A stretch of DNA of 64,000 bases from assembly GCA_963737265.1 (NCBI GenBank), contig CAVTRY010000008.1, forward strand, positions 1,446 to 65,445, written 5' to 3'. The first letter of the stretch is position 1; every line of letters starts with the position of its first letter. Under the pieces are notes generated by a model. The model did no database searches, had not been told where the DNA came from, and was given only the letters and a program-made list of their open reading frames with translations. Made by a program: the position numbers and the translations under genes. This stretch comes from an uncultured delta proteobacterium (GTDB lineage Bacteria > Myxococcota_A > Polyangia > Fen-1088). Positions 29,957 to 64,000 of this stretch are shown here, piece after piece.

Positions 29957-31672
29957 ATGGCTACCGAAAAGGTTCGCCTCGCCAGCATCGCACTTGGACC
30001 GCTCTTGCGTCGGCGCGGAACATCTCCCGCTGTCGGGGCCACGCAGCGTCGGGCGATCCAGGCGCTGGACAAGGCACTGGTCGAGAACGATCCACGAAAA
30101 CAGGAGGATGCGATTCGCTTGGCGACGGCAGAGCTACGAAACTGCCAGCACTTGGCCGAGCAGTCCAGCCGTGAAGCCGACCGCGGGCAGCTCGACGGTG
30201 TGAACCAAGCCTTGATCCTGATAGCGCCGGCCACAGCACCCGCGCCGCCTAGATCGTCGGTGTTTCTGGCACCCAGCCCCGCCCCAGCCAGCGAAATTCT
30301 CCATCCCCCCGGCCAACCGGTGGCGCCGTTCAAACTTGTGCCACCACCGATTCCACCCCAGGCGCGACCTGCCCCTCTTGCCGCCTCACCAACGGCGGAA
30401 GCGCGCATTCGGACGCCCAAAACCAAGTCGCTCGATTTTCCCACGGCTCGCGTCCGGCTGGACGGCCTTCTCAAGGGAGTCCGGGTTATTCATGTCAGGC
30501 TTGACGATCCGTTGACCACCCTTCGCGAAGTCAGCGTCGCCGGTCTCGAACTCGATAAGATCGTCCAGGTGACAAAGTGGCTTGGGGCCAAGCACATCCC
30601 TGCGTTTCTCGAAGCGGCCGAAAAGGCCGAGAACGTGGAGGAACGGCTTGTAGCCCATGCGGCGCTCGTTCACCTCGGCGTGCCAGATGGTGCCGAGAAA
30701 ATGATAACCATGGTCGCGAAGGCTGCAATGGACAAGCCGCCCGGTACAACTGCCACGATTTTGCGTACCCTCGCCAATGCGGGTGTTCTCGATGGCCTGG
30801 TTAAACTCTTCTTGGGCCGGCCCGAGATCGCGCTTTGCAAGGTGCTCCTGCCTGTTCTTTGGGAAAATGGATTGCTGTCGTCTGACCAACTACTAAATCT
30901 TGCAAACCATCCCGACGACGAGGTGTCCGCTGAAGCGGCGGTAGCGCTTGCGTGGGCTGGCGATGCCCGCGGCGCCCAGATGCTCTTGGCGTGGGCGCGC
31001 GCGACTTCGGACCCGCGACGGGCGAATGCCTTTCTTTTCGCGGCGGTGGCTCTTGGGTTGGTCGAGGCCCTTGCCGAGGTACGAGCGCGGCTCACGGAAT
31101 GCAAAGATAGCGTCCATGGCGCCCACCATCTTATCGAGGCGCTCGCGATCGCTGGCGACGGTTCAGATGCCGTTCGGTTGGTGGCGTTTGCCGCGCGGCC
31201 TGAAGCCGAGGTCGATGTTGATGTCGGCCAGGCCGTTCTCGCGGCTGCCAATTTGGGGTGCGCGGAAATCCTTCCATCGCTGTCCGCTTTCGCGGAGCGC
31301 GTGCGCCCGGACATCCTGACGGAAGCCCGAAGCATGATTCTCGGAGACGGTCGCTCGCACCATCCCGGCACGATTCCATCGCCGTCGACCACCCGAATGC
31401 TTCGAGGTCAGCCGTGGTCGGTAGCCGGGGTGCTTGAGAGCCTCGCCGCGCTTGACCGTCCAGTTTGGTCGCAGCGGCGATCGGCCCTGGAGATCCGCGT
31501 GCGCACGGGGCTGGTGCCCCCGACCGGGTTTCCGCTGCTCGCGTCGGCCGCTGCCCGTGCCGAGCTGTTGGCGAAATGGGAAACGCATTTCGCGAAGGCA
31601 GGTGCGAAGCTCGCGCCAGGTGGATGGTACTACCAAGGCAAGCCCGCCAGATCAGCAGGGGGTATCCGATGA
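29957..31672 (+). CDS. HEAT/ARM-like repeat protein, function unknown
   Basis: 571 aa with a Pro/Ala-rich linker followed by a helical-repeat region (..LVAHAALVHLG..; ..AAVALAWAGD..; ..LFAAVALGL..). Its stop overlaps the DUF2169 start (ATGA). Confidence 0.5.
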   Translation: MATEKVRLASIALGPLLRRRGTSPAVGATQRRAIQALDKALVENDPRKQEDAIRLATAELRNCQHLAEQSSREADRGQLDGVNQALILIAPATAPAPPRSSVFLAPSPAPASEILHPPGQPVAPFKLVPPPIPPQARPAPLAASPTAEARIRTPKTKSLDFPTARVRLDGLLKGVRVIHVRLDDPLTTLREVSVAGLELDKIVQVTKWLGAKHIPAFLEAAEKAENVEERLVAHAALVHLGVPDGAEKMITMVAKAAMDKPPGTTATILRTLANAGVLDGLVKLFLGRPEIALCKVLLPVLWENGLLSSDQLLNLANHPDDEVSAEAAVALAWAGDARGAQMLLAWARATSDPRRANAFLFAAVALGLVEALAEVRARLTECKDSVHGAHHLIEALAIAGDGSDAVRLVAFAARPEAEVDVDVGQAVLAAANLGCAEILPSLSAFAERVRPDILTEARSMILGDGRSHHPGTIPSPSTTRMLRGQPWSVAGVLESLAALDRPVWSQRRSALEIRVRTGLVPPTGFPLLASAAARAELLAKWETHFAKAGAKLAPGGWYYQGKPARSAGGIR

Positions 31673-32727
31673 GCCTGATCGTCAATCTGACGGACTCCGA
31701 AGTCGCCTATGTCCTAGGCATGGGATGCGATGGCCAGTGGCAGGTCACCGCCGTGGTGAAGACCACGTACGTCTGGAATCAGTCGGGCGAGGTGAGTCCC
31801 GTTCCGGCTTCGCCAATCACGACCATGGACGAGATCGCGGGTGAAGGCGCTGCCTCCAGCCTGTTGCGCGCTCGCGAGCTCGCGCCCCCCAAGCCCAATC
31901 TCGATGTCCTGCTCGTCGGGGCCATCGCCTTCCCGAATGCCATCGCCGAGGTCGACGTCGAGCTGAAGGTCGGATCCCGCTTACGCAAAAGAGCCCGAGT
32001 TTTCGGAGATCGCGTTTGGGTGCCCGGCATGGTGGCGGATCTGGTGCCGTCGCAGCCGCGGCCGGTGACTTGTGTACCCATCACCTGGGAACGGAGCTAC
32101 GGCGGCACGGATCCGGACGATTCGACCTACGTCGACCGACGCAATCCGGCGGGCTCGGGCGTGGCCAAGGATTTGAAGACGCTGCACGGCCGACCGGCAC
32201 CCAATTTCGAACATCCCGAGAAAGCCATCGGCGCGCTGATGGGAACGCCCGACCCCATCGCCTTTGGCCCTGTGGCTGCGCATTGGCAGCAAAGGATCGC
32301 CTTGGCCGGGGCCTATGACGAGGCTTGGGAGAAATCGCGCCGCCCCTTGCCGCCCGAGGATTTCTCACCCGCGTTCTTCAATGTCGCCCCCGCAGATCAG
32401 CGGTTGGACGGTTACCTGGCGGGCGAGGAGGTTCGTCTGCATAACCTGACCACGGCGGTCCACGATCATTTCAATCTGCCCGCGTCCGCGATCCCCATCG
32501 CGTTCGTGACCAGCGACGATTTCACGGAAGAAATCGCCGAGGTCGATACCCTCGTGATCGAGCCGGAAGAGCGGCGGTTCTCCTTGCTCTGCAAAGCCCA
32601 GGCGACGCTCGGCGAAGGCCCGCGATCCCTCGGGCGCATTGTCGTCGGCGCGATGACCGACGAAATTCGGGATGCGGTCGGAAGTGGCGGGCCATACATT
32701 CTGGCGGTGGAACCGGAGGGCGAGTAG
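31669..32727 (+). CDS. DUF2169 domain protein (T6SS-associated adaptor family)
   Basis: ..PKPNLDVLLVGAIAFP...VELKVGSRLRKRARVFGDRVW.., ..TWERSYGG.., ..NPAGSG.., ..PNFEHP.., ..FGPVAAHWQQRIALAGAYDEAWEKSRRPLPPEDFSPAFFNVAPADQ..GEEVRLHNL.. follows the DUF2169 consensus along its length. Confidence 0.8.
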   Translation: MSLIVNLTDSEVAYVLGMGCDGQWQVTAVVKTTYVWNQSGEVSPVPASPITTMDEIAGEGAASSLLRARELAPPKPNLDVLLVGAIAFPNAIAEVDVELKVGSRLRKRARVFGDRVWVPGMVADLVPSQPRPVTCVPITWERSYGGTDPDDSTYVDRRNPAGSGVAKDLKTLHGRPAPNFEHPEKAIGALMGTPDPIAFGPVAAHWQQRIALAGAYDEAWEKSRRPLPPEDFSPAFFNVAPADQRLDGYLAGEEVRLHNLTTAVHDHFNLPASAIPIAFVTSDDFTEEIAEVDTLVIEPEERRFSLLCKAQATLGEGPRSLGRIVVGAMTDEIRDAVGSGGPYILAVEPEGE

Positions 32728-38738: not shown

Positions 38739-39851
38739 ATGGGCAAAGTCTTCATCAACGGTCGTCTCGCCGTCTGGGAAAACGGCCCCGGCATCTCCAT
38801 CGCCTTCCCCGACGTGTGCCTGTGCCCGCCCGGTCCGCCCGCGGGTCCCGTCCCCGTGCCGCTCACCAACACCGTCACCGCCCAAGATCTCGTCAACTGC
38901 GCCGCCACCGTCTTCATCGACGGCCAACCCGTCGCCCACCGCGATTCCTACTTCGCCAAGTCCACCGGCAACGAGGTATCCCGCAACACCGGCGGCGGCA
39001 TCACCAGCCACGCCGTGCAAGGCAAGGCCTACTTCGGCAGCTACTCACCCAACGTCCTCATCGAAGGCAAGCCAGCCGTCCGCCACCTCGACCTCGTGAC
39101 CCACAACCACCTCGACCCCATGCCCACCAACTGCCCGCCCGCCGTATGGGTCTCCGAAGCCAGCCCCGACCTGCCGCCACCAATCCCCAAGAACAAGACC
39201 AACGTTCTTCAGGAAGGCACGGACTGGATCGAGATCTCCTTGGTGGACGAAGCCGACGAGCCCATCCCGTACACGCCGTTTCGCTTCAAGACACCAAAGC
39301 AAGCCTTGGTCGAGGGCCGTTTCCTGTGGGGCGGGAAGCTGACCATTCGCAAAATGGCCCAGGGACGGTGCGAGCTGGTTCTGCCGGAAGTCGATGCCAT
39401 AGCCAACCCAGCCAATCCAAACTCGTCCGCCCGCGCCCCGGCGAACACGATTCGCTATCGTCCGGGGCAGCCGCTCTTGCTGGTGTCGGGAAAAGGCTAC
39501 CGTGTGTTCGTTGCGCAAATGCGAACGCTGTTCGTTGAGTTGCCCCTTCCCCAATCGGCAGCCAAAGCCGACCGCTACACCTTGCGAAGCGATGACGGTA
39601 CGTACGGCGTGTCCAAGACTGTCGCCGACGATCTGGTGAAGGAAGACGACATCCTGACCCTGGCGTTCCCGAAAGTGATCGCAGGGCCGAAGTACGCCCT
39701 GGCCCACGACGACTGCGCCGGACACTCTCACGACATCTTCGCCGGGTTGACCTTCGACAACCTGTTCCCGAAAGAACCGTGCTCGCCTTATGACGAGCCG
39801 GTGGCGGCCACCGATCTACGATTTGGCGTTGGGCAGCGCAGAAACGGATAG
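38739..39851 (+). CDS. cassette 1 protein C: PAAR-like DUF4150 protein with C-terminal extension
   Basis: ..FPDVCLCPPGPPAGPVPVPLTN...VFIDGQPVAHRDSYFAKSTGNEVS..GGGITSHAVQGKAYFGSYSPNVLIEGKPAVRHLDLVTHNH.. matches the DUF4150 (PAAR-like) consensus. 370 aa. Confidence 0.85.
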   Translation: MGKVFINGRLAVWENGPGISIAFPDVCLCPPGPPAGPVPVPLTNTVTAQDLVNCAATVFIDGQPVAHRDSYFAKSTGNEVSRNTGGGITSHAVQGKAYFGSYSPNVLIEGKPAVRHLDLVTHNHLDPMPTNCPPAVWVSEASPDLPPPIPKNKTNVLQEGTDWIEISLVDEADEPIPYTPFRFKTPKQALVEGRFLWGGKLTIRKMAQGRCELVLPEVDAIANPANPNSSARAPANTIRYRPGQPLLLVSGKGYRVFVAQMRTLFVELPLPQSAAKADRYTLRSDDGTYGVSKTVADDLVKEDDILTLAFPKVIAGPKYALAHDDCAGHSHDIFAGLTFDNLFPKEPCSPYDEPVAATDLRFGVGQRRNG

Positions 39852-39855
39852 GACC

Positions 39856-41874
39856 ATGGCCAGGCACAAGATCGACTTCGAGGAAGAAGACCTCAAGCCC
39901 AACTGGCGCTACGAGGTCAAGCCCCGGCTTTACACGCCACCAGGCCAGAACCCGCCGCCGCTGGCGAACAAGAACGGCCCAACACGGGCGGTGGTTCGCG
40001 TAGCGCCAGCGGATCGGCGGCTGGACAACGAGACCCCTGCCGATCCGCAGTCTCCCGACATCACCGGTAGATACCAAAGCGATGGCGCCAAGGAGGCGTC
40101 AGGCAAGCCCGCCTTCCTTCTGCACGTGAACCAGGCCGGCAAGCACGTCGAGGCCTTGCTGGTGCGGCTGCCGCACGGACATCAGCATGGCTCGATCGCG
40201 CAGCAGCGGTTCTATGCGGATCTGAAGGGTGATGGCGTGTTCGCCGCGAGCACGCCCACCGTAGCCGAGGGAGCCACGGTCGAGGGTGTGTCCGGCGAGA
40301 TTCGCCAGCAGGGCGAGGAATTGATCGTCAACCTGCCGGTCTGGGATGGCCTGGACGGGACCACGTTTTATCTGCGCGACAAGCGCGCGACCTTTCTCGA
40401 TCAATCGTTGGATTCCTTGATCGAAGCCGAAGGCGCGGTGGTGGGACAGGATCCGGAGATCAAGGCCCTGGTCGAGAGCATCGAGAACCTGCCGCTTTCG
40501 GATGCCCAACGATCTCGTCTGCGCCAGGTCTTCACACCCGAGATACTCGATCCATTGCTTAAAGATTGCTTCGGCCACGGCTCGAAAGACGACGACATCA
40601 GAAGATCCGCGGTCGTTGGCTCGGCCGAGCAGTTGGACATTTACCTTGGCAAGGCGTTCGACCAGTCAAGCTGGTCACACCAGCAATGGCCGCAGGTGCT
40701 TCAATACGTGCGCACCGTCCTGACGATGCAAACGGTGGTCATCAACGACAGTCGACGCTCCGAGTTAGATTGGATCGAGGCGGTTGCCGCCGAGGCCATT
40801 CCCGATGCCGACTATTTGGTTCATCCGACGGCCACCAACCCAGACAAGGGCCAACCAACAGAGTTACCCAACTTGCGACGCTTGCTGGGGGTGACAGAGC
40901 AATCCGGATACAATGTTGTCCACAAGTACGAGGTGACGGTCGACTTAAAAGCCCACGACACCTCGCCCAAGAGATTCGGTCTGGCACCGTTTCACCTGCG
41001 AGCATACGAGGGAGCCATCAAGATCACCCAGCTCCGCTCGTCCGCCGATGAGGGCTGGCTTTACAGCTACAAGATGATCCTCGTGGGTGGTGCAGCGATA
41101 TTGGGCAAAGGTGGTGCCGAGGACTTGAACGCAAGTGGTTCGTTCAAGTCGAGCACCAACTGGACACCCGCCGACTTTCCGGGGTGGGTGCTTCTTCATG
41201 ACGGCGGGGCCTGGGCTGGAAAGAAACCGCCGAGCGCGAAGGAGACTCTTGGTGTCGGCCACCGAGAAGCGGTCCTGGTCCTGAAAGGCCGGGGCAACCA
41301 TCGCGAGCAACTGTTTCCGCTCAAAGGCGCTGATGCGCTCCGGGATGGGCTCGGTGGTGAGTACTCGTTCACGTGGGGAAGAATCTATGACTTGGATACG
41401 GACCTGTCCGAAATCGACTATAGCCGTCCGATGAAGCACTCGGAACGAGTTGTGACGACGCGAACAGAGGACAACGTCCACTTCGAGTTCGGAAGCGCTC
41501 TGCTCAAAGGCGCCGGGCGATATCAGGTGCGGGTATTGTGCGCAATCTGGTTGCGCTGGTTGGAATCCGCGAGAAGTACCCTTCACATCGTTGGCCACGC
41601 CGACACGGTGGATACGAAACAGCACAACGACGAGCTTTCTCTCATGCGCGCCACGAACGTCGTCCGAGCAATCAAGGGCATTCTCGGCCCCAAGCTCGGA
41701 ATCCCGGATGATGCCATCACGTTCTTTGGTCGAGGGAAACAAGAAGCCGACGAGGACAAATCGGCCAGGGAAAGGGCTGTCGGGCACCGGCTTCGGGATA
41801 CGCCCGACGTTCGATTCCGAAAAGTCGAGATCGAGCTGAATGGGCAATGCGTGCTGGTTCTGTGGGGTGCTTGA
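39856..41874 (+). CDS. cassette 1 protein D: large protein without signal peptide, C-terminal OmpA-like peptidoglycan-binding domain (candidate effector)
   Basis: 672 aa. The C-terminus ..LHIVGHADTVDTKQHNDELSLMRATNVVRAI..FFGRGKQE.. fits OmpA_C (GH.D..G....N..LS..RA..V). It starts 4 nt after the C1 stop. Confidence 0.65.
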   Translation: MARHKIDFEEEDLKPNWRYEVKPRLYTPPGQNPPPLANKNGPTRAVVRVAPADRRLDNETPADPQSPDITGRYQSDGAKEASGKPAFLLHVNQAGKHVEALLVRLPHGHQHGSIAQQRFYADLKGDGVFAASTPTVAEGATVEGVSGEIRQQGEELIVNLPVWDGLDGTTFYLRDKRATFLDQSLDSLIEAEGAVVGQDPEIKALVESIENLPLSDAQRSRLRQVFTPEILDPLLKDCFGHGSKDDDIRRSAVVGSAEQLDIYLGKAFDQSSWSHQQWPQVLQYVRTVLTMQTVVINDSRRSELDWIEAVAAEAIPDADYLVHPTATNPDKGQPTELPNLRRLLGVTEQSGYNVVHKYEVTVDLKAHDTSPKRFGLAPFHLRAYEGAIKITQLRSSADEGWLYSYKMILVGGAAILGKGGAEDLNASGSFKSSTNWTPADFPGWVLLHDGGAWAGKKPPSAKETLGVGHREAVLVLKGRGNHREQLFPLKGADALRDGLGGEYSFTWGRIYDLDTDLSEIDYSRPMKHSERVVTTRTEDNVHFEFGSALLKGAGRYQVRVLCAIWLRWLESARSTLHIVGHADTVDTKQHNDELSLMRATNVVRAIKGILGPKLGIPDDAITFFGRGKQEADEDKSARERAVGHRLRDTPDVRFRKVEIELNGQCVLVLWGA

Positions 41875-42467
41875 TGCGCCGAAGGGCGACGTGCTTCATG
41901 GTCGGGCTCGCCTTCAGTGCAGCGAGTGCTTGCCACAAGAAGACGCCCGAGGGCCTCCCCTTCGCGTACGTCGAGGCCATCTCGGCGATGGCCGACGAGG
42001 CCGTGAAACATTGTGATCGCCTGCTGCACGAGAAGGTTTGCTATGACGTTCTCGGCGACGAGAGAAATCCCAATGCCGATGCTATGGAGGGCGCTCCCCG
42101 CGTCCCCCTCCCTGACAATCCGTTGGGCGGGGCCGCCGAGCTACGCCTGCTTATGGCAAGCTGCGCCTCGACCCACGAACACGACAATCCTCGTCTTTGG
42201 TGCAACGCCAGGAGCCTCGTCAAGACGCGACTCCCGCTGGAGTGCATCGAATTCAGGCTATTCGGTTCGTGGCCTGCGGTGAATCCCCAGGAGAACGAGG
42301 GCATGAGCGTGTCGGTGGCGGCCAACCCGGCATGCAAGGCTCCGTGGGTCGAAGTTGCGGCGGTCCGAAAGACGCCCGGCGGAGACTGGTTCTCGCTCAA
42401 CGCCTACTTCCTACCGAAAAAGTGGCTCGACAAGCATCCAGAGGACGCCAAGGATGCAAAGAAGTAG
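41874..42467 (+). CDS. cassette 1 protein E: small Cys-containing lipoprotein (candidate immunity protein)
   Basis: 197 aa with lipobox GLAFSAASAC. The start overlaps the D1 stop (TGATG). Paralogue at 48908-49486 with a diverged middle and an identical 3' end. Confidence 0.6.
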   Translation: MRRRATCFMVGLAFSAASACHKKTPEGLPFAYVEAISAMADEAVKHCDRLLHEKVCYDVLGDERNPNADAMEGAPRVPLPDNPLGGAAELRLLMASCASTHEHDNPRLWCNARSLVKTRLPLECIEFRLFGSWPAVNPQENEGMSVSVAANPACKAPWVEVAAVRKTPGGDWFSLNAYFLPKKWLDKHPEDAKDAKK

Positions 42468-45778: not shown

Positions 45779-46891
45779 ATGGGCAAAGTCTTCATCAACG
45801 GTCGTCTCGCCGTCTGGGAAAACGGCCCCGGAATGTCCATCGCCTTCCCCGACGTGTGCCTGTGCCCGCCCGGTCCACCCGCCGGACCAGTCCCGGTTCC
45901 GCTCACCAACAACGTCACCGCCCAAGATCTCGTCAACTGCGCCGCCACCGTCTTCATCGACGGCCAGCCCGTCGCCCACCGCGATTCCTACTTCGCCAAA
46001 TCCACCGGTAACGAGGTATCCCGCAACACCGGCGGCGGCGTCACCAGCCACGCCGTGCAAGGCAAAGCCTACTTCGGCGGCTACTCACCCAACGTCCTCA
46101 TCGAAGGCAAGCCAGCCGTCCGCCACCTCGACCTCGTCACCCACAACCACCTCGACCCCATGCCCACCAACTGCCCGCCCGCTGTCTGGGTCTCCGAAGC
46201 CAGCCCCGACCTGCCGCCGCCAATCCCCAAGAACAAGACCAACGTCCTTCAGGAAGGCACGGATTGGATTGAGATATCCTTGGTGGACGAAGCCGACGAG
46301 CCCATCCCGTACACGCCGTTTCGCTTCAAGACACCAAAGCAAGCCTTGGTCGAGGGCCGTTTCCTGTGGGGCGGGAAGCTGACCATTCGCAAAATGGCCC
46401 AGGGACGGTGCGAGCTGGTTCTGCCAGAAGTCGATGCCATAGCCGACCCAGCCAATCCAAACTCGTCCGCCCGCGCCCCGGCGAACACGATTCGCTATCG
46501 TCCGGGGCAGCCGCTCTTGCTCGTGTCGGGGAAAAGCTACCGTGTGTTCGTCGCGCAAATGCGAACGCTGTTTGTCGAGCTGCCCCTTCCCCCATCGGCG
46601 TCGAAAGCCGACCGCTACACCTTGCGAAGCGATGACGGCACGTACGGCGTGTCCAAGACTGTCGCCGACGATCTGGTGAAGGAAGACGACATCCTGACCC
46701 TGGCGTTCCCGAAAGTGACCGCGGGGCCGAAGTACGCCCTGGCCCACGACGACTGCGCCGGACACTCTCACGACATCTTCGCCGGGTTGACCTTCGACGA
46801 GCTGTTCCCGAAAGAACCGTGCTCGCCTTATGACGAGCCGGTGGCGGCCACCGATCTACGATTTGGCGTTGGGCACCGCAGAAACGGATAG
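45779..46891 (+). CDS. cassette 2 protein C (PAAR-like DUF4150)
   Basis: 370 aa, a few substitutions away from C1 and C4. Same DUF4150 motifs. Confidence 0.85.
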   Translation: MGKVFINGRLAVWENGPGMSIAFPDVCLCPPGPPAGPVPVPLTNNVTAQDLVNCAATVFIDGQPVAHRDSYFAKSTGNEVSRNTGGGVTSHAVQGKAYFGGYSPNVLIEGKPAVRHLDLVTHNHLDPMPTNCPPAVWVSEASPDLPPPIPKNKTNVLQEGTDWIEISLVDEADEPIPYTPFRFKTPKQALVEGRFLWGGKLTIRKMAQGRCELVLPEVDAIADPANPNSSARAPANTIRYRPGQPLLLVSGKSYRVFVAQMRTLFVELPLPPSASKADRYTLRSDDGTYGVSKTVADDLVKEDDILTLAFPKVTAGPKYALAHDDCAGHSHDIFAGLTFDELFPKEPCSPYDEPVAATDLRFGVGHRRNG

Positions 46892-46895
46892 GACC

Positions 46896-48908
46896 ATGGC
46901 CAGGCACAAGATCGACTTCGAGGAAGAAGACCCCAAGCCCAACTGGCGCTACGAGGTCAAGCCCCGGCTCTACACGCCACCTGGCCAGAAGCCCCCGCCG
47001 CTGGCCAACAAGAACGGCCCGACACGGGCGGTGGTTCGCGTGGCGCCCGCGGATCGGCGGCTGGACAACGAGACCCCTGCCGATCCGCAGTCTCCCGACA
47101 TCACCGGTAGATACCAAAGCGATGGCGCCAAGGAGGCGTCAGGCAAGCCCGCCTTCCTTCTGCACGTGAACCAGGCCGGCAAGCACGTCGAGGCCTTGCT
47201 GGTGCGGCTGCCGCACGGACATCAGCATGGCTCGATCGCGCAGCAGCGGTTCTATGCGGATCTGAAGGGTGATGGCGTGTTCGCCGCGAGCACGCCCACC
47301 GTAGCCGAGGGAGCCACGGTCGAGGGTGTGTCCGGCGAGATTCGCCAGCAGGGCGAGGAATTGATCGTCAACCTGCCGGTCTGGGATGGCCTGGACGGGA
47401 CCACGTTTTATCTGCGCGACAAGCGCGCGACCTTTCTCGATCAATCGTTGGATTCCTTGATCGAAGCCGAAGGCGCGGTGGTGGGACAGGATCCGGAGAT
47501 CAAGGCCCTGGTCGAGAGCATCGAGAACCTGCCACTTTCGGATGCCCAACGATCTCGTCTGCGCCAGGTCTTCACACCCGAGATACTCGATCCATTGCTT
47601 AAAGATTGCTTCGGCCACGGCTCGAAAGACGACGACATCAGAAGATCCGCGGTCGTTGGCTCGGCCGAGCAGTTGGACATTTACCTTGGCAAGGCGTTCG
47701 ACCAGTCAAGCTGGTCACACCAGCAATGGCCGCAGGTGCTTCAATACGTGCGCACCGTCCTGACGATGCAAACGGTGGTCATCAACGACAGTCGACGCTC
47801 CGAATTAGATTGGATCGAGACGGTCGCCGCCGAGGCCATTCCCGATGCCGACTATTTGGTTCATCCGACGGCCACCAACCCAGACAAGGGCCAACCAACC
47901 GAGTTTCCCAACTTGACTCGGCTTCTTGGGATCACGGAGCAACACGGGAGCGGCGCCGTTCACAAGTACCTGGTGGATGTCGATTTGACGGCACACGACA
48001 CCTCGCCCAAGAAATTCGGTCTGGCGCCGTTTCACTTGCGGGCATACGAAGGAACAGTCACCGTGTCAAAGATGGATTCGACAGGCCGAAAGGATTGGGT
48101 GCATCCCTACAAGATGGCGCTCGTTGGTCCGGCTGTCATCCTGGGTAAGGGTGGCGCGGAAGACGTCAAGGCAAGGGGCTCATTCGAGTCGAGCACCAAC
48201 TGGACACCCGCCGACTTTCCAGGGTGGGTGATTCTCCACGATGCTGGTGTATGGGCGGGAAATAGGCTTCCAGTAACGAAGGAACTCGTTGCTGTGGGCC
48301 ATCGCGAGCCTGTCCTTGTCCTAAGAGGTCGGGGCAACCATCGTGAGCAACTGTTCCCGCTCAAAGGCGCTGATGCGCTCCGGGAGGGGCTCGGTGGTGA
48401 GTACTCGTTCACGTGGGGAAGAATCTACGACCTGGACACGGACCTGTCCGAAATCGACTACAGCCGCCCGATGAAGCACTCGGAACGAGTGGTGACGACG
48501 CGAACAGGGGACAACGTGCACTTCGAGTTCGGGAGCGCTTTGCTGAAGGGCGCCGGGCGATATCAGGTGCGGGTATTGTGCGCGATTTGGTTGCGCTGGT
48601 TGGAATCCGCGAGAAGCACCCTTCGCATCGTTGGCCACGCCGACACGGTGGATACGAAACGGCGCAACGACGAGCTTTCTCTCATGCGCGCCACGAATGT
48701 CGTCCGGGCGATCGAGGGCATTCTTGGCCCCAAGCTCGCAATTCCGGATATCAAGCCCCTGGGGCTAGGGAAACAAGAAGCCGACGAGGACAAAGCAGCC
48801 AGGGAAAGGGCAGTCGGGCACCGGCTTCGGGATACGCCCGACGTTCGATTCCGAAAAGTCGAGATCGAGCTGAATGGGCAATGCGTGCTGGTGTTGTGGG
48901 GAGCTTGA
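46896..48908 (+). CDS. cassette 2 protein D (OmpA-like C-terminus, candidate effector)
   Basis: 670 aa. The first ~340 aa are essentially identical to D1, the patch at about aa 345-480 is diverged, and the OmpA-like C-terminus is conserved. Confidence 0.65.
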   Translation: MARHKIDFEEEDPKPNWRYEVKPRLYTPPGQKPPPLANKNGPTRAVVRVAPADRRLDNETPADPQSPDITGRYQSDGAKEASGKPAFLLHVNQAGKHVEALLVRLPHGHQHGSIAQQRFYADLKGDGVFAASTPTVAEGATVEGVSGEIRQQGEELIVNLPVWDGLDGTTFYLRDKRATFLDQSLDSLIEAEGAVVGQDPEIKALVESIENLPLSDAQRSRLRQVFTPEILDPLLKDCFGHGSKDDDIRRSAVVGSAEQLDIYLGKAFDQSSWSHQQWPQVLQYVRTVLTMQTVVINDSRRSELDWIETVAAEAIPDADYLVHPTATNPDKGQPTEFPNLTRLLGITEQHGSGAVHKYLVDVDLTAHDTSPKKFGLAPFHLRAYEGTVTVSKMDSTGRKDWVHPYKMALVGPAVILGKGGAEDVKARGSFESSTNWTPADFPGWVILHDAGVWAGNRLPVTKELVAVGHREPVLVLRGRGNHREQLFPLKGADALREGLGGEYSFTWGRIYDLDTDLSEIDYSRPMKHSERVVTTRTGDNVHFEFGSALLKGAGRYQVRVLCAIWLRWLESARSTLRIVGHADTVDTKRRNDELSLMRATNVVRAIEGILGPKLAIPDIKPLGLGKQEADEDKAARERAVGHRLRDTPDVRFRKVEIELNGQCVLVLWGA

Positions 48909-49486
48909 TGCGTGGAAGGAACGCGTGTCTCATCGTCGGGCTCGCCTTCAGTTCAGCGAGTGGTTGCCACAAGAAGACGCCAGCAGGAATTTCCTTCGCC
49001 TATGTCGACGCCGTCTCCGCGTTGGCCGATCAGACGGCAAAATACTGCGATCATCTTTTGCGCGAGAGTGCTTGCTACAGCGCCTTGAGCATAAATCCCG
49101 ACAATGAACACCGACTGGCCGTTCCTTTGCCTGACAATCCGCTGGGTGGCATCCCCGAGCTGCGCCAACTGAAAGCAAAATGCGATTCCGCCGACGAGCA
49201 CAACAACCACCAACTCTGGTGCGACGCCAAGAGCGTAGTCAAAACCCGACTTCCAAGAGAATGTGAAATGTTTAGCCTCTTCGGCTCTTGGCCAGTGGTC
49301 AACCGGCTAGAGAAGGAAGGCGTCACCGTGTCAGTGGTGGACGACCCGGCATGCAAGGCTCCGTGGGTCGAGGTTGCGGCGGTCCGAAAAACGCCCGGCG
49401 GAGACTGGTTCTCGCTCAACGCCTACTTCCTACCGAAAAAGTGGCTCGATGAGCATCCAGAGGACGCCAAGGATGCAAAGAAGTAG
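48908..49486 (+). CDS. cassette 2 protein E (small lipoprotein, candidate immunity)
   Basis: Lipobox GLAFSSASGC. TGATG overlap with D2. About half of its residues are identical to E1, and the last ~45 aa are identical. Confidence 0.6.
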   Translation: MRGRNACLIVGLAFSSASGCHKKTPAGISFAYVDAVSALADQTAKYCDHLLRESACYSALSINPDNEHRLAVPLPDNPLGGIPELRQLKAKCDSADEHNNHQLWCDAKSVVKTRLPRECEMFSLFGSWPVVNRLEKEGVTVSVVDDPACKAPWVEVAAVRKTPGGDWFSLNAYFLPKKWLDEHPEDAKDAKK

Positions 49487-52829: not shown

Positions 52830-54047
52830 ATGGGCAAAGTCTTCATCAACGGTCGTCTCGCCGTCTGGGAAAACGGCCCCGGCATCTCCATCGCCTTCCC
52901 CGACGTGTGCCTGTGCCCGCCCGGTCCGCCCGCGGGTCCCGTCCCCGTGCCGCTCACCAACACCGTCACCGCCCAAGATCTCGTCAACTGCGCCGCCACC
53001 GTCTTCATCGACGGCCAGCCCGTCGCCCACCGCGATTCCTACTTCGCCAAATCCACCGGTAACGAGGTATCCCGCAACACCGGCGGCGGCGTCACCAGCC
53101 ACGCCGTGCAAGGCAAAGCCTACTTCGGCGGCTACTCACCCAACGTCCTCATCGAAGGCAAGCCAGCCGTCCGCCACCTCGACCTCGTGACCCACAACCA
53201 CCTCGACCCCATGCCCACCAACTGCCCGCCCGCCGTCTGGGTCTCCGAAGCCAGCCCCGACCTGCCGCCGGTGCAGCCGAGGAGGTACACGAAGGTACTG
53301 CACGAGGGCAAGGAATGGGTCGAGATCGACATGGTGGATCTCGAAGGCGAAGCCGTCGCCTACGAGAACTACAGTGCGAAGACCCCCACCGGCGAAAAGA
53401 TCGAAGGCCGCAGCCTTCTCGCCGGAATCGTCACGTTCAAAGGGCTCGCCAAGGGCGACTGCCGGATCGTCTTTCCCAGTATCGACGCCAACCCGTTTTC
53501 GCCGGGCCGCAAGCCAGCCGACAAGATCGACCCCGGCACGTCCAGCCGGGGCGAGCGCTCGAAGGCGGACAAGATCTACATCGCCGGCAAAACCCTCGCG
53601 CTGGCCACCGGAAGGAAGTACCGGGTCGAGCTTCCCCGCCGGCCGAGCTTTTGGCTTGAGCTGACCATCGAGCACCGCAATGCCGAGCCACAAGGCTGCG
53701 CGTACGTCCTGCGCAGCACCGACGGAACCTACCAAGCGGAGCGGACGTTGGCGGACGACCTATCTCGCAGCGCCGGCTCCCTCGTTTTGCAATTCGCGGA
53801 TCTGCTGGCGGACAAGGCGTACACGCTGATTCACAAGTTGGGCAGGGATGCCGGAACGCGTGTGCTCTTCCACGACATGCCCTACGAGCGCCTGCGCGGG
53901 CACGCGTGGAACGCCTACGAGGCGCAGCCCGACGGCGAGTCCCCCATCGAGGATGTGACGGCCGACTTGCACCGGCTGCTGCATGCCCGCGAGCTCGGCG
54001 ACGACCCCGACGAAGAGACATTGCCGGGTTTCGCGGGGCCGGCATGA
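52830..54047 (+). CDS. cassette 3 protein C': PAAR-like DUF4150 with a divergent C-terminal extension
   Basis: The N-terminal ~150 aa are identical in type to C1, C2 and C4. From ..SPDLPP|VQPRRYTKVLHEGKEWVEIDMVDLEGE.. (about nt 53271) the sequence is a distant variant. 405 aa. Confidence 0.8.
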   Translation: MGKVFINGRLAVWENGPGISIAFPDVCLCPPGPPAGPVPVPLTNTVTAQDLVNCAATVFIDGQPVAHRDSYFAKSTGNEVSRNTGGGVTSHAVQGKAYFGGYSPNVLIEGKPAVRHLDLVTHNHLDPMPTNCPPAVWVSEASPDLPPVQPRRYTKVLHEGKEWVEIDMVDLEGEAVAYENYSAKTPTGEKIEGRSLLAGIVTFKGLAKGDCRIVFPSIDANPFSPGRKPADKIDPGTSSRGERSKADKIYIAGKTLALATGRKYRVELPRRPSFWLELTIEHRNAEPQGCAYVLRSTDGTYQAERTLADDLSRSAGSLVLQFADLLADKAYTLIHKLGRDAGTRVLFHDMPYERLRGHAWNAYEAQPDGESPIEDVTADLHRLLHARELGDDPDEETLPGFAGPA

Positions 54048-56362
54048 GCCCGATTCCAGCCCGTGCCGAGGTTGGCATCAACTTCGTGCGGTGGGATGCG
54101 CGCTTCCTCTTCTATCGCGATCTGCCGCGACCAGCGGGTAGCCCCGGCGACAGGGTGACCACGCCGGTCAAGAACTGCTGGCTCTACATCTTCGACCCAT
54201 TCGGACCATTGCTGTTCGAGGTCTATGCCGATGCCGATGGCCTGTATCACGAGGTCGATACGACGAAGCACGCCGGCAAGGACATCAGACCGTTCGCGCT
54301 GGAAGGCCAGGCGGTGCGCCCCACCCTGCCGCTGCTGGCTGGCCAGCGGACGTCCAAGGGGACGATCCCCATCTTCCACTGGATCTTGCCGTCGCCGTTT
54401 CAATTGCCGTGGTCACGCTTCCCGCACCTCACGCACCTGGAAACAAACAACGACGGCCCGCGTGGCGATTTCAGAAAATGGGCCGAGGGCACCCGCCAGC
54501 TATCTCACTTCGTGCCGAGGTTTCAAGAAGACACAGGGAACCCGTTGCCCGAAACGGCGGTTCCTTCCCCGTGGCTGCATGCCCAGGCCCTCGGCCGATG
54601 CTTCCAAATCGCGCAAGAGCGGTGGCTGTCGGGCTTTCTCGACGACACCGCCCGCATGGAACGCAAGACCCTGCGCTCGTACGTGCGATCCATCGAATCG
54701 ATCGTGGGCAAAGAGCGCTTCGAGCGCGACATGCTGGATCTCATCGACAAGCTCGCCTTCGAGACCGAGGAGAGGCACGACAAGGAGCAAGAGGAGTTTC
54801 CGCCTACCGAGCTGGTCGGGGCGCGCACCGCGCTGATCGGCTACCTGAAAAGCCCACGCTATCTGGCCATGCGCGACGATGCCCTGGCGTCGCCCGACCC
54901 GCGCGCCCTGGCGACTTTCGCCGAGATCCAGGCCACGGCGGAATCGGGCCTGGAAGGCGTGGCCGGCGATCCTGCTTACCGCGCGTCCGTGTTGCGCGAC
55001 AACCCCAAGCTTTTCAAGAAAGAGGCCGAGGAGGTATCGACCGAGGTTAAGTCCTTCATCGAGGCCCACCCGGAAGCCATGTACGACCAGCCCGCGAGCC
55101 TCGGCTGGAAGGAACAGCGCAAGGCCCTCAAATCGTACTGGTACCTGGTCAAGGCGTATATCGCACAGATCGAATGGATCGCGCCGCGCAGGTTGACGAG
55201 GGATCTCAAGACCTTTGGCCGCGAGCTGTTTGGCGTGCTGGTGGAGTTCGATTTGGCCGAAGGGACGGCGGCTCGGCGGATGCCCGACGGAACCATCAAG
55301 TGGCCACGCCTCGTGGTCAGCCCACAGACCAAGGCCCGTCTGTCCGATAGGTATTCGAACAACCTGGAATGGAACACCTTCTTCGTCGTGCTCGATGCCT
55401 ACAACCTCATCATGGCCTGCCAGGAACAAGCCAAAGGCAAGACCGACATGAAGACCGTGGTGAGCGCCATGGGCGCTTTCCTGAACACCGTGGCCGCCGC
55501 CGTCGAGGCGACATTACAGCGGCAAGGAGCGAAGCACCTGATCGTCACCGACAAGATGATCGCCGAGCTGGCCGAGGGCGCGGGCAAAACCAGCGCGAGG
55601 AAAGGATCGGGAAGCTTCGCGGTCACGCTGCGGAAGTTTAACCAGCCGAAGACGATTGGAGCGATGGGGAAGTTGTTGGGGGCACTGGGGTCTGCCTTCG
55701 AGGCTTGGAGCCAAATTCAGCAGGCGAAAGGGGCGGATTCCGAATTGGACCCAGATGTGGCCCTGGCACATCGAGTTTCGGCAGGGGCGAATATTGCAGT
55801 GACAGCAGGCTATTTCATCGGATTTTTCGGGACCGTGTGTGGAATCGCGGTAGGTACAGCCGTCGCCTGGCCGCTGGCCTTGGTGGCAATTGGCTCGTGG
55901 CTGGTTCTCGGCGGGACGGTCACGGATTTGGGGGCAAAGCTGGTCTTGCTGCATCTGAAGAAGGATCCGCTGGAGAATTGGTTGAAGGTCACGCCATGGG
56001 CGCGTGGGGCAAGATTCCGGATTGAAAGCTTCGACGAACAGGTTAAGGCCTTTCATAGGGCGCTGGTAGGACTGCATGTGAACATCCGCCCCGGCCTCAC
56101 CGGCTTCGACGTGACAGTCGAATCACGAGTTGTCCAGTCCCCCGCCCAGGTCTATCTCGAGCTCGAATGGCTGGGCGAAGCCGGTCCTGAGCCGTTGAAG
56201 AACGCTATGGCACCCATGACAGCAGCGGAATACCTGAGTCCAAGCCAATTCAGACATACCGAGTTCGCTTCGCCCGTGAGGACCGTGACAGCCCGCGTGC
56301 GCCTGCTCCTGGATGGCGAGTGGTATCCGGAGGAGCCGGCGGTGTTCAACTACCCGGAGTAG
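54044..56362 (+). CDS. cassette 3 protein D': unrelated large protein with C-terminal Gly/Ala-rich TM helix cluster (candidate membrane-active toxin, possibly VasX-like)
   Basis: 772 aa with an ATGA overlap with C'. N-terminal ..NCWLYIFDPFGPLLFEVYADADGLYHEV... C-terminal hydrophobic cluster ..ANIAVTAGYFIGFFGTVCGIAVGTAVAWPLALVAIGSWLVLGG... No OmpA-like domain. Confidence 0.5.
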   Translation: MSPIPARAEVGINFVRWDARFLFYRDLPRPAGSPGDRVTTPVKNCWLYIFDPFGPLLFEVYADADGLYHEVDTTKHAGKDIRPFALEGQAVRPTLPLLAGQRTSKGTIPIFHWILPSPFQLPWSRFPHLTHLETNNDGPRGDFRKWAEGTRQLSHFVPRFQEDTGNPLPETAVPSPWLHAQALGRCFQIAQERWLSGFLDDTARMERKTLRSYVRSIESIVGKERFERDMLDLIDKLAFETEERHDKEQEEFPPTELVGARTALIGYLKSPRYLAMRDDALASPDPRALATFAEIQATAESGLEGVAGDPAYRASVLRDNPKLFKKEAEEVSTEVKSFIEAHPEAMYDQPASLGWKEQRKALKSYWYLVKAYIAQIEWIAPRRLTRDLKTFGRELFGVLVEFDLAEGTAARRMPDGTIKWPRLVVSPQTKARLSDRYSNNLEWNTFFVVLDAYNLIMACQEQAKGKTDMKTVVSAMGAFLNTVAAAVEATLQRQGAKHLIVTDKMIAELAEGAGKTSARKGSGSFAVTLRKFNQPKTIGAMGKLLGALGSAFEAWSQIQQAKGADSELDPDVALAHRVSAGANIAVTAGYFIGFFGTVCGIAVGTAVAWPLALVAIGSWLVLGGTVTDLGAKLVLLHLKKDPLENWLKVTPWARGARFRIESFDEQVKAFHRALVGLHVNIRPGLTGFDVTVESRVVQSPAQVYLELEWLGEAGPEPLKNAMAPMTAAEYLSPSQFRHTEFASPVRTVTARVRLLLDGEWYPEEPAVFNYPE

Positions 56363-57341
56363 ACACCTTGCCCTTTGGTGGGGCCAGGTATTTGCGCAGG
56401 AAACCGGCGAGCAGATTCGCGGTCCCGCAGATTGGGGAACAGGAGAAAACCCCCTGAACAATGACCAATTCTCCCGCATCACCATCGCCAACGACCCTGA
56501 CCGCACCCTCGTGAGCGTCGAAGGTGCGTACGGTCCCCCGGTGCCGAAGGAAGACTTCCCTCTTTCCTTTCCGAAAGGTAGCCACGCTGGCACGCCGGCC
56601 GTCATAGACAATCCAGCACGGGCCTAGCGTGCTCAGAATGGCGGCCGCCACGGCTATGACCGTTGCGTACGTTGGAAGAAAAACAAATGGGAAGAAGGCT
56701 ATCCCCGGCGCTGTCAGCATGGCTACCCCCACGCCCACGACCCATTGGCGCGCACTGCCGAAGTTGGCGATGGAGACGCTGTTCTCGTCGTACCCGACAA
56801 CATCGGCTCCGGATTCGGCCAACAAGGGAAGAAAACTTCTTTCGGAATCCTCGCCCAGCGACGCTCCTAAAAAGCGTTCGAGGATCGCCGAGGCTTCGAC
56901 CCGTTCGACCTCGTCTGAGGTCACACGTGCGGGAACAGACGCAGTCGGGAAATCCCAGTCCGCTGGGGAGCAGCCATGTGGAAGTTCGATGGTCCACTGA
57001 CCATCCCCCAGATCTATGAACATGCTTCTGGTTCCGCGTTTCAGCACGAGAAAACGCCGACCACGATCGGCTAGCCAAATGAGGAAGAACGTCGGGAACG
57101 CCCCAAGTAGGAGCCAAGGAATCGAAGGCCCGAGCTTGGAATCCACCCATCTGGCAATCACCAAAAAGAGCGCAAGGAGAAACCAGAACATCGTAAACCA
57201 CGCCGCCTTGGCGATGGCGGGAGCCGTCAAGGGAAACACAATCTCGTCGTCGCTGATCTTCTTGATGCGGTAGCAGCGGCGCAAAAGCGCCTTCTCGTCT
57301 TCCGTGAGATGAGCCGCTGGTGTTTGTGCCCCGTCTGACAT
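56346..57341 (-). CDS. multi-pass membrane protein (candidate immunity protein for D')
   Basis: 331 aa with several TM helices (WFTMFWFLLALFLVIA; WLLLGAFPTFFLIWL; VGVGVAMLTAPGIAFFPFVFL; TVIAVAAAILSTL). Convergent with D', overlapping it by 17 nt. Confidence 0.55.
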   Translation of the reverse strand: MSDGAQTPAAHLTEDEKALLRRCYRIKKISDDEIVFPLTAPAIAKAAWFTMFWFLLALFLVIARWVDSKLGPSIPWLLLGAFPTFFLIWLADRGRRFLVLKRGTRSMFIDLGDGQWTIELPHGCSPADWDFPTASVPARVTSDEVERVEASAILERFLGASLGEDSERSFLPLLAESGADVVGYDENSVSIANFGSARQWVVGVGVAMLTAPGIAFFPFVFLPTYATVIAVAAAILSTLGPCWIVYDGRRASVATFRKGKREVFLRHRGTVRTFDAHEGAVRVVGDGDAGELVIVQGVFSCSPICGTANLLAGFLRKYLAPPKGKVSTPGS

Positions 57342-60878: not shown

Positions 60879-61991
60879 ATGGGCAAGGTCTTTATCAACG
60901 GTCGCCTCGCCGTCTGGAAAAACGGCCCCGGCATGTCCATCGCCTTCCCCGACGTGTGCCTGTGCCCGCCAGGTCCACCCGCGGGTCCTGTCCCCGTTCC
61001 GCTCACCAACACCGTCACCGCCCAAGATCTCGTCAACTGCGCCGCCACCGTCTTCGTCTACGGCCAGCCCGTCGCCCACCGCGATTCCTACTTCGCCAAG
61101 TCCACCGGCAACGAGGTATCCCGCAACACCGGCGGCGGCATCACCAGCCACGCCGTGCAAGGCAAAGCCTACTTCGGCAGCTACTCACCCAACGTCCTCA
61201 TCGAAGGCAAGCCAGCCGTCCGCCACCTCGACCTCGTCACCCACAACCACCTCGACCCGATGCCCACCAACTGCCCGCCCGCCGTCTGGGTCTCCGAAGC
61301 CAGCCCCGACCTGCCGCCGCCAATCCCCAAGAACAAGACCAACGTTCTTCAGGAAGGCACGGACTGGATCGAGATCTCCTTGGTGGACGAAGCCGACGAA
61401 CCCATCCCGTACACGCCGTTTCGCTTCAAGACACCAAGGCAAGCCTTGGTCGAGGGCCGTTTCCTGTGGGGAGGGAAGCTGACCATTCGCAAAATGGCCC
61501 AGGGACGGTGCGAGCTGGTTCTGCCGGAAGTCGATGCTATAGCCAACCCAGCCAATCCAAACTCGTCCGCCCGCGCCCCGGCGAACACGATTCGCTATCG
61601 TCCGGGGCAGCCGCTCTTGCTCGTGTCGGGGAAAAGCTACCGTGTGTTCGTCGCGCAAATGCGAACGCTGTTTGTCGAGCTGCCCCTTCCCCCATCGGCG
61701 TCGAAAGCCGACCGCTACACCTTGCGAAGCGATGACGGCACGTACGGCGTGTCCAAGACCGTCGCCAACGATCTGGTGAAGGAAGACGACATCCTGACCC
61801 TGGCGTTCCCGAAAGTGATCGCAGGGCCGAAGTACGCCCTGGCCCACGACGACTGCGCCGGACACTCTCATGACATCTTCGCCGGGTTGACCTTCGACGA
61901 GCTGTTCCCGAAAGAACCGTGCTCGCCTTATGACGAGCCGGTGGCGGCCACCGATCTACGATTTGGCGTTGGGCACCGCAGAAACGGATAG
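60879..61991 (+). CDS. cassette 4 protein C (PAAR-like DUF4150)
   Basis: 370 aa, a few substitutions away from C1 and C2. Confidence 0.85.
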   Translation: MGKVFINGRLAVWKNGPGMSIAFPDVCLCPPGPPAGPVPVPLTNTVTAQDLVNCAATVFVYGQPVAHRDSYFAKSTGNEVSRNTGGGITSHAVQGKAYFGSYSPNVLIEGKPAVRHLDLVTHNHLDPMPTNCPPAVWVSEASPDLPPPIPKNKTNVLQEGTDWIEISLVDEADEPIPYTPFRFKTPRQALVEGRFLWGGKLTIRKMAQGRCELVLPEVDAIANPANPNSSARAPANTIRYRPGQPLLLVSGKSYRVFVAQMRTLFVELPLPPSASKADRYTLRSDDGTYGVSKTVANDLVKEDDILTLAFPKVIAGPKYALAHDDCAGHSHDIFAGLTFDELFPKEPCSPYDEPVAATDLRFGVGHRRNG

Positions 61992-63945: not shown

Positions 63946-64000
63946 CCGCCGCTCCGGGGGCCGGCAAGGCGCTTCGCGCCTCCTCCGCTTCGCTCCGGCC

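Follow-up and report, generated by a model that had tools for sequence, protein, structure and literature searches.

Concerted evolution with retained alleles in a tandem cassette array of a myxobacterial genome, and a candidate type VI secretion effector-immunity pair

We analysed a 64,000-nucleotide stretch of contig CAVTRY010000008.1 of assembly GCA_963737265.1 (C8:1446-65445, the window; positions without a prefix are counted from its first letter). It holds an array of four tandem cassettes of ~7 kb each (U1-U4), built of five genes, A-B-C-D-E, downstream of a DUF2169 chaperone operon. The cassettes are mosaics, in which blocks that are nearly identical between copies alternate with blocks that are old and diverged. 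The first-pass annotation, made from this sequence alone, had described the mosaic for the D and E proteins. The pattern spans all five cassette genes: the A-B-C-D-E unit as a whole has evolved in concert, with old alleles kept in some of its blocks. The overall explanation that we find likely on balance is that these are tandem type VI secretion system (T6SS) cassettes, shaped by concerted evolution and allele retention, in which D and E would form an effector-immunity pair.

The genome (6.55 Mb, 25 contigs, 7.6% estimated contamination, probably metagenome-derived) was assigned to the Polyangia (myxobacteria), and the nearest database relatives of the array genes were from Polyangia/Myxococcales metagenome genomes. 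Gene A encodes a ~300-aa lipoprotein-like protein and gene B a Cys-rich lipoprotein. Gene C (370-405 aa) carries a Tox-PAAR-like/DUF4150 domain (PF13665, E ~1e-28, in C1-C4), gene D is 672 aa long from its likely start with a C-terminal OmpA domain (PF00691), and gene E encodes a ~200-aa lipoprotein. The last three genes are tightly packed, with a 4-nt gap from C to D and an overlap of the D stop and the E start (TGATG). L-numbers denote related loci in other samples.

Mosaic structure and age of the D and E blocks

The D and E genes compared here were:
39790-41874, plus strand: D1; likely true start 39856 (672 aa; 694-aa frame from 39790)
46830-48908, plus strand: D2 (46896..48908 from the inner start); D1-like as far as the end of patch 1, then a patch 2 of its own (47910-48401) and a C-terminal block as in D4
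61996..63905, plus strand: D4, interrupted (frame from 61930); patch 1 (62566-63003) of the other allele class, patch 2 (63004-63495) D1-like, the rest D2-like
41874..42467, plus strand: E1, lipoprotein, candidate immunity protein; core (41935-42335) diverged, tail (42336-42467) conserved; alternative ATG at 41847
48908..49486, plus strand: E2, lipoprotein; core allele 95% identical to an orphan E in L033

Likelihood segmentation of the D1/D2/D4 codon alignment defined four blocks with three nearest-pair patterns, given here with their positions in D1 and followed by two features of that gene:
Codons 1-212, 39790-40425: D block 1; identity of at least 97% among D1, D2 and D4
Codons 213-360, 40426-40869: D patch 1; D1 and D2 97% identical (97-99% by block comparison), D4 55-59%
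Codons 361-524, 40870-41361: D patch 2; D1/D4 83%, D1/D2 74%, D2/D4 72%, giving three alleles
Codons 525-662, 41362-41775: D block 4; D2 and D4 97% identical, D1 90-91%
39856..40425, plus strand: block 1 of D1, disordered N-terminus and beta-sandwich, homogenised among D1, D2 and D4
41362..41874, plus strand: C-terminal block of D1 with the OmpA-like domain; its stop overlaps the E1 start

The protein alignment of D1, D2 and D4 reproduced the run of identity, divergence and reconvergence that the first-pass annotation had described for D1 and D2, and all the peptides quoted there were found. Its claim that the sharp transitions reflect recombination and not uniform drift was borne out by the block structure, by the switching of partners and by permutation tests on site patterns. 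Among 403 informative sites in D, 240 grouped D1 with D2, 95 grouped D1 with D4 and 68 grouped D2 with D4. These patterns were clustered along the gene (maximum chi-square 221 versus at most 21 in 1000 shuffles) and fell into 94 runs where 227 +/- 8 were expected, and the clustering also held on third codon positions alone. The D/E mosaic is thereby confirmed as real and well beyond chance. For D4, the shared first ~200 residues and the different block behind them stood as described, but after patch 2 the protein resembles D2 and not D1, and the end once given for the gene (63945) is a read-through into an ISL3 insertion at about 63905.

E1, E2 and E4 each have a lipoprotein signal and six conserved Cys residues; their cores are diverged and their 44-codon tails nearly identical. 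As had been noted at first sight, E1 and E2 differ over most of their length and are alike at the ends: their cores (codons 30-162) have ~59% protein identity and their last 44 codons differ at one residue.

Synonymous divergence (dS) and the ratio of non-synonymous to synonymous divergence (dN/dS) were estimated per block by the Nei-Gojobori method:
D block 1, three copies: dS 0.05-0.09, dN/dS 0.09-0.15
D patch 1, D4 against D1 or D2: dS saturated (>2), dN 0.47-0.49, dN/dS 0.16-0.22
D patch 2: dS 0.43-1.12, dN/dS 0.18-0.29
E core: dS 1.0-2.4, dN/dS 0.11-0.21
E tail: dS 0.11-0.35, dN/dS 0.03-0.09

The D flanks showed dS near 0-0.09 and the patches dS of 0.4 to saturated. A search for dN/dS >1 in young sequence was made at block level, the alleles here being too few for site-wise selection tests, and gave 0.09-0.29 in the patches, similar to the flanks. 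Unsaturated within-class pairs, taken over all blocks, gave 0.15-0.24 (U1 versus L009) and 0.14-0.16 (U4 versus L010). The blocks of D and E differ in age, not in selective regime, and all are under purifying selection. The patches had been called hypervariable; the term is wrong, because patch dN/dS matches that of the flanks while patch dS is that of old alleles. A diversity-generating mechanism was dropped as a candidate in view of the saturated dS and of a self-comparison of the window, which contained no template copy of the patches. Separately, the E signal-peptide codons (41847-41933 and 48881-48967) had dN/dS of ~1.2-1.5 between paralogues on 10-15 non-synonymous changes, which probably reflects relaxed constraint in that segment.

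Related C-D-E loci from other samples (L001, L002, L004, L006, L008, L009, L010, L031, L033, L034 and L035) separated the blocks in the same way. Across both domains of C, block 1 of D and the tail of E, the copies within the genome were mutually nearest at 93-98%, and the best external allele, that of L009, reached 86-91%. Patch 2 and the E core of U1 were nearest to the external L009 (90% and 94%), the E core of U2 to the orphan E of L033 (95%), and patch 1 of U4 to L010/L031 (79%, versus 59% to U1 and U2). In D block 1, dS was 0.05-0.09 between paralogues versus 0.43 between U1 and L009; in patch 2 of U1 it was 0.25 to L009 versus 0.43-0.92 to the paralogues. L009 and U1 were 85-98% identical in nearly every 120-nt window from C through E, with no partner switch.

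Within the array, the near-identical partner changed along the cassette. Gene A was ~100% identical in cassettes 2, 3 and 4 and only ~55% in cassette 1. The partners were U2, U3 and U4 in A, U1 and U2 in the middle of B and in D blocks 1-2, U1 and U3 at the end of B and the start of C, and U2 and U4 in D block 4. Exact tracts of 250-485 bp are common to cassettes. We attribute this to gene conversion or unequal crossing-over inside the array, because purifying selection on the protein cannot give the two-regime pattern. Repeated exchange of this kind between tandem copies keeps C, the N-terminal and C-terminal blocks of D and the E tail near-identical, and patch 1, patch 2 and the E core escape homogenisation and persist as old allele classes that circulate in other strains as well. 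The diverged blocks are either protected by selection or too different to recombine, and imports from other strains may also contribute to the mosaic. The D/E module itself is patchy: 7 of the order's 89 genomes have it, and 0 of 12 sister species have it in a close form. The D/E family is rare, with 11 clusters for D and 7 for E among 5.8 billion.

Other histories would leave similar traces. If the cassettes were recent duplicates whose patches are hotspots of diversifying selection or of targeted hypermutation, sharp boundaries between identical and diverged sequence would be seen, and the elevated dN/dS of the E signal-peptide codons, with very few changes, points the same way. We regard this as extremely improbable, since patch dS runs from 0.4 to saturated versus 0.04-0.09 in the flanks, patch dN/dS is low in the unsaturated within-class pairs as well, other strains (L009, L010/L031, L033) have these patch alleles too, and D shows three tree topologies along its length with no extra template copy of a patch in the window. 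An assembly artefact, with strain variants or repeat copies misjoined at identical stretches, would fit the 25 contigs, the estimated contamination and the exact tracts, at which an assembler could switch copies. It is nevertheless very unlikely. The whole U1 combination (C tail, patches 1 and 2 and E1 core) is contiguous in L009, an independent sample; the combination of a D end with E2 recurs in L033; L031 and L033, from other samples, hold arrays of more than one cassette, with modules of the D type and the U3 type; and the ISL3 insertion has a clean duplicated target site. Independent contigs with the same block combinations thus support the repeat-array assembly indirectly. The identical blocks might, lastly, be the remnant of one recent tandem amplification, with patches and E cores imported later and no ongoing conversion inside the array. 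That the patch and E-core alleles are nearest to other strains, and that 7 of 89 genomes hold the module, as horizontal transfer would have it, speak for this account. We consider it doubtful, though with some real weight: the near-identical partner changes many times along the cassette, which needs many imports or exchange between copies, and no donor closer than 79-95% was seen for any patch. Amplification with import and conversion inside the array are not mutually exclusive.

D and E as a candidate effector and immunity protein

Judged from the sequence of the genes and of their neighbours, D is quite probably a periplasm-acting T6SS cargo effector and E a periplasmic lipoprotein that confers immunity to it. 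An effector-immunity reading of D and E had been proposed at the outset, and gene context supports it through the triad of C tail, D and E, the T6SS genes of the genome and the keeping of E where D is lost. The chaperone gene and the genes in front of D were:
31669..32727, plus strand: DUF2169 chaperone gene upstream of the array (PF09937, E = 2.7e-73)
38739..39851, plus strand: C1, PAAR-like (DUF4150/PIPY) spike-tip protein with a ~240-aa C-terminal tail (PF13665)
45779..46891, plus strand: C2, PAAR-like spike-tip protein of cassette 2 (PF13665)
52830..57341: alternative module of cassette 3, C3 with a different tail, D3 and E3 (E3 on the minus strand)
60879..61991, plus strand: C4, PAAR-like spike-tip protein of cassette 4 (PF13665)

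C1-C4 are the only DUF4150 genes of the genome. The C tail is 96-98% identical among C1, C2 and C4; that of C3 differs, the match of C3 to C2 being limited to the first ~323 residues (63% identity). The D slot of cassette 3 is occupied by a BTH_I2691-like T6SS effector: D3 resembles that family with E = 8e-17, below the cut-off of the model (NF041559). E3 is a membrane protein encoded on the opposite strand, and the U3-type module (the kind found in cassette 3) is also present in L031 and L033. DUF2169 is reported to be found strictly together with the spike complexes of VgrG and DUF4150 ("PIPY") and to act as their chaperone (PMC11883445). The genome has a T6SS, with TssC and several VgrG on contigs C11, C13 and C21, and in a syntenic metagenome contig the gene order is VgrG, HEAT-like, DUF2169, KS-like, kinase, A, B, C, D. 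Parts of a PAAR-like tip module are present, namely a DUF4150 gene adjoining D, DUF2169, VgrG and a T6SS in the genome, a signal-less D and an E with a lipobox downstream.

A C-tail homologue lay upstream of D in every related locus with readable flanks (14 loci, down to ~26% D identity). The PIPY domain ahead of the tail was detected in about half of the loci; elsewhere a contig end cut it or there was tail homology only. An E homologue lay downstream of D wherever the downstream sequence was compared, down to ~26-34% D identity, with L001 as the sole exception. At L008:3624-4499 (~291 aa) and in L029, L039 and L057 the upstream gene matched the C tail only, with no PAAR-like domain detected, which hints that the C tail can exist as a separate adaptor.

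The D sequence contains neither a signal peptide nor a membrane segment. The PF00691 match (32 bits versus a cut-off of 27.2) covers residues 565-662 of the 694-aa frame, and in a Foldseek search with the D model this part matched best the domains of YiaD, OprF, Pal and TagL, with probability 1.0. The wall-binding Asp/Arg motif is intact, GHADTVD and N..LS..RA being invariant in 12 sequences. A wall-binding domain on a protein made in the cytoplasm makes sense if D is injected into the periplasm of another cell. The model predicts a disordered N-terminus (1-65), a beta-sandwich (70-176), a helical domain (180-345) that corresponds to patch 1, a domain of eight long strands (356-512) that corresponds to patch 2, and the OmpA-like domain (545-670). 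A structural anchor of the TagL type was dropped as a candidate for D, which has no membrane segment or signal.

E appears to be periplasmic, as it is a lipoprotein with three likely disulfides, and the lipobox and the conserved Cys residues were kept in 13-15 E homologues. Its structure model (pTM 0.74) shows one long helix and a six-stranded sheet, and a Foldseek search with it returned no solved structure at E <= 0.001.

A profile of the N-terminal 525 residues of D found 127 representatives at E <= 0.001 among 1.84 billion proteins. The motifs T70-G71-R72-Y73 (TGRY) and N92-Q93-A94-G95-x-H97-x-E99 (NQAGxHxE), conserved at 80-99% in ~115 sequences, are the most conserved positions of this superfamily, and both lie within the homogenised D block 1. 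The OmpA-like domain followed the D core in 17 of 20 scanned relatives, and no signal peptide or hydrophobic N-terminus was found in ~70 inspected ones. Some relatives are 870-2216 aa long with N-terminal subtilase, S10, M15 or trypsin-like peptidase domains. Six proteins of 1200-2200 aa (P0039, P0044, P0046, P0058, P0059 and P0070) are signal-less and join a peptidase to a C-terminal D core, the OmpA-like domain being detectable in 4 of 6. All ten remote D-core clusters that were looked up came from metagenome sources, and among the closer family members one has an NCBI record, from a Polyangia metagenome-assembled genome. By these searches D and E are a candidate effector-immunity family, rare and undescribed.

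In L042:5477-13338 the genes after that of a remote D-like protein encode PhoD-like, M23 and VanY proteins, a neighbourhood that looks like an arsenal directed at the cell envelope. The D-like, PhoD-like and VanY proteins there (3 of 4) begin with MYI and a similar short start motif, possibly a shared leader for export or packaging; the motif was sought in the other remote loci and not found. Two paralogous proteins of 440-450 aa, with no function assigned, lie upstream of the D-like protein.

Cassette 4 is decaying while its E gene is intact, as an insertion sequence lies in D4 and its B gene is split:
63906..64000, plus strand: left end of an ISL3-family insertion sequence (~1.48 kb) inside D4, which continues beyond the window (C8:65351-66835)

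The insertion, at about 63905, is flanked by a duplicated GGGAAAGGG at both junctions and encodes a transposase of 411 aa (PF01610, E = 4e-61, and PF13542). It breaks D4 at about codon 658 of the 61930 frame, and the last 34 codons of D4 and an intact E4 lie ~1.5 kb beyond the break, outside the window (C8:66842-67542). The two parts of the split B gene are 58560-59057 and 58790-60862. Loss of D next to a kept E was also seen in other samples. A D homologue at L031:7989-10001 has an in-frame TAA after residue 238, which splits the gene, with an E gene behind it. At L033:9285-10579, after a U3-type cassette, one open reading frame joins A residues 18-184 (167) to the last 80 residues of D and is followed by an E gene with 92% protein identity to E2; the unit is the product of a deletion that spared only the candidate immunity gene. 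At L006:4503-5906, D and E are followed by a 45-codon remnant of the D 3' end and a second copy of E. Orphan units of this make, a D 3' fragment and an E behind a full locus, are thus present in L033 and L006. The effector and immunity roles are favoured because the retention and orphaning of E resemble the behaviour of T6SS immunity genes in Vibrio cholerae (PMC5361080). The array would be open to decay or reshuffling by insertion of mobile elements, by deletion and by the orphaning of E. We also observed that the E of L031 is 351 aa long, with a ~150-aa C-terminal extension, and that the L031 contig carries a second, U3-type cassette, so that two-cassette arrays exist elsewhere.

Paired variation of D and E, which the first-pass annotation had read as co-diversification, was seen in part, for one patch and not for the other. 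Across five close loci the E core followed patch 2 of D with r = 0.65 (15 of 120 permutations, not significant), and with L031 and L034 added (seven loci) the Mantel r was 0.74-0.78, a value as high being reached in 18 of 5040 permutations. Patch 1 gave r = 0.02 in the five-locus set, and the conserved D blocks between patch 2 and E had r of about 0 with the E core. Patch 1 recombines freely relative to E. The association of patch 2 with the E core fits a specificity contact between the beta-rich domain and the core of E, the most likely place for one, but as evidence it is weak.

For secretion, toxicity, neutralisation and specificity residues we infer the following scheme from the neighbourhood, the retention of E and the block pattern. 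C would be a PAAR-like spike tip whose C-terminal tail docks the cargo encoded next door. That cargo, D, would be made without a signal peptide, injected into the periplasm of a neighbour and held on the wall by the OmpA-like domain, and its N-terminal beta-sandwich, helical and beta-rich domains would damage the envelope. E, a disulfide-rich lipoprotein translationally coupled to D, would neutralise it in the periplasm of the producer. With the specificity contact lying between patch 2 and the E core, one array would hold several effector-immunity specificities together. As a more tentative extension, which may well prove wrong, the D core could define an undescribed superfamily of envelope-targeting, signal-less proteins exported by injection machines; in this lineage the beta-rich domain and E would act as an allele-specific lock and key, and gene conversion would keep the delivery parts uniform while several old specificities are preserved. 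If true, this would be a multi-allelic self/non-self system in a social bacterium.

Several observations weigh against the effector-immunity scheme. No toxin domain was found in D by Pfam, NCBIfam, PADLOC, PDB sequence search or Foldseek: the family scans returned nothing but OmpA/MotB, a D-family profile matched only OmpA-like domains among PDB sequences, and the beta-rich domain had weak, non-significant calycin/FABP-like matches in Foldseek. The AlphaFold (AF2) model of D is only moderate (pLDDT 61). No VgrG adjoins the array, which is flanked by IS91, IS21 and ISL3 elements. At L001:5628-6587 the gene after a D homologue (64% identity) encodes a lipoprotein of 319 aa that has no relation to E and may be an immunity replacement or a different partner. 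The correlation of patch 2 with E rests on 7 loci, two of them nearly identical. It could be linkage, as no signal was seen in the conserved DNA that lies between patch 2 and E. E4, moreover, differs from E1 at ~30% of core residues although patch 2 of D4 is D1-like.

D might instead be a non-toxic wall-binding anchor or recognition factor and E its periplasmic partner, the alleles then reflecting recognition specificity or drift. The lack of a recognisable toxin fold or catalytic family in D is in keeping with such a role, OmpA-like domains act as T6SS anchors in TagL (7bba was among the Foldseek matches), and myxobacteria have polymorphic surface recognition systems such as TraA/TraB, in which TraB has an OmpA-like domain. 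We consider this unlikely. With neither a signal peptide nor a membrane segment, D cannot reach the wall of its own producer as an anchor. It occupies the same slot as a bona fide effector family does in cassette 3, and a remote D-like protein adjoins M23 and VanY wall hydrolases. E is kept when D is broken or deleted and is duplicated in orphan units, as is expected of an immunity protein and not of the partner of a lost protein. Outer-membrane exchange of the TraA/TraB kind, suggested by a Cys-rich B and an OmpA-like D, was tried as a candidate and dropped, since D is signal-less and the PAAR-like/DUF2169 context is that of a T6SS; it is also weakened by B, which matches no Pfam, NCBIfam or PADLOC family and so no known Cys-rich repeat family.

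Surroundings of the array

The array is preceded, in this order, by a Ser/Thr kinase gene on the minus strand, a HEAT-like gene, the DUF2169 gene, a ketosynthase-like gene and a second kinase gene. Genes E, A and B had zero matches in the Pfam, NCBIfam and PADLOC scans. In its first half the window contains IS21-family transposition genes, an integrase-type transposase gene, a YhcG-like nuclease gene and an IS91 transposase. Two CRISPR arrays (6570-7213 and 10701-14856) with a period of ~72 bp lie there and flank insertion sequences next to a cas operon:
15340-23114, minus strand: type I-C cas operon

Relation to known systems

Recombining effector-immunity loci are well known, and the general pattern is no surprise. 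In V. cholerae, homologous recombination has made mosaics of the T6SS clusters, and displaced effectors leave their immunity genes behind as orphans (Kirchberger et al. 2017, PMC5361080); effector-immunity loci of the T6SS also recombine in agrobacteria (PMC8546570). As in the V. cholerae modules (PMC5361080), alleles are common to strains and immunity candidates stand as orphans, here in L033, in L006 and as E4 behind the broken D4. Unlike those modules, whole spike-tip/effector/immunity cassettes are here repeated four times in tandem, with part of their sequence homogenised. The breaks in the mosaic lie within a single effector gene, at the borders of its domains, and not between whole effector-immunity modules; the host is a myxobacterium, and its effector family has not been described before. 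The array is a clean natural case in which synonymous divergence tells two processes apart within one gene: the presumed delivery and anchor parts are homogenised inside the genome, and the presumed specificity parts are kept as old alleles common to several strains. The block map shows which parts of D and E to examine for specificity.

The nearest functional analogue in the literature would be TpeV-TpiV from the Aux 4 cluster of V. cholerae, where the cargo effector TpeV, which has no signal peptide, acts from the periplasm to permeabilise cells (PMC8386463). D is like TpeV in having no signal peptide or membrane segments, and TpeV relatives have OmpA-like C-termini; the resemblance is functional and architectural only. 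E, like TpiV, is encoded directly downstream and has an export signal. TpeV differs in its DUF4123 adaptor context, and its relatives were reported from Gammaproteobacteria (PMC8386463). Among the remote relatives of the D/E family are proteins fused to, or encoded beside, proteases and wall hydrolases.

The first-pass annotation had likened D and E to polymorphic toxin/immunity pairs. The classical layout of such toxins, with a conserved N-terminus and a swapped C-terminal toxin tip, does not apply to D. D1, D2 and D4 align end to end; they vary in their interior (codons 213-524) and keep a conserved OmpA-like end at the C-terminus. They fall outside the classical definition, because all alleles are homologous and no C-terminal tip is swapped. 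A swap for non-homologous sequence is seen in cassette 3 alone, where it takes in the C tail, D and E as one module. The nuclease colicins E2-E9 and their Im proteins are homologous alleles with conserved parts and a limited specificity segment, in which cognate pairs covary and recombination between alleles has been invoked, and positive selection at the interface has been named as a factor in their diversification. D and E differ from them in showing no positive-selection signal at block level, and in delivery route, folds and compartment.

Among immunity genes of the type VII secretion system, tandem non-identical paralogues of esaG/tsaI exchange segments by homologous recombination (PMC9484751). 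As in these genes and in the orphan modules of Rhs and CDI systems, conserved ends are the substrate for recombination in our array. The esaG/tsaI and Rhs/CDI arrays repeat only immunity genes, or toxin tips with immunity genes, whereas the unit repeated here has five genes and includes the delivery protein. The variable part in Rhs and CDI is a C-terminal tip that is non-homologous between types, whereas that of D is internal and homologous.

The delivery genes themselves resemble the VgrG/DUF4150 (PIPY)/DUF2169 complexes (Sachar et al. 2025, PMC11883445) in that DUF2169 lies beside DUF4150 genes and, in the syntenic contig, VgrG lies upstream. The PIPY proteins studied there are mainly described with toxin domains of their own, whereas here the PIPY tail matches a separate cargo encoded downstream. 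Our array also differs from the studied complexes (PMC11883445) in having four PIPY genes in a row behind a single DUF2169 gene, and four such spike-tip genes with one chaperone make the choice of cargo by PIPY tails testable.

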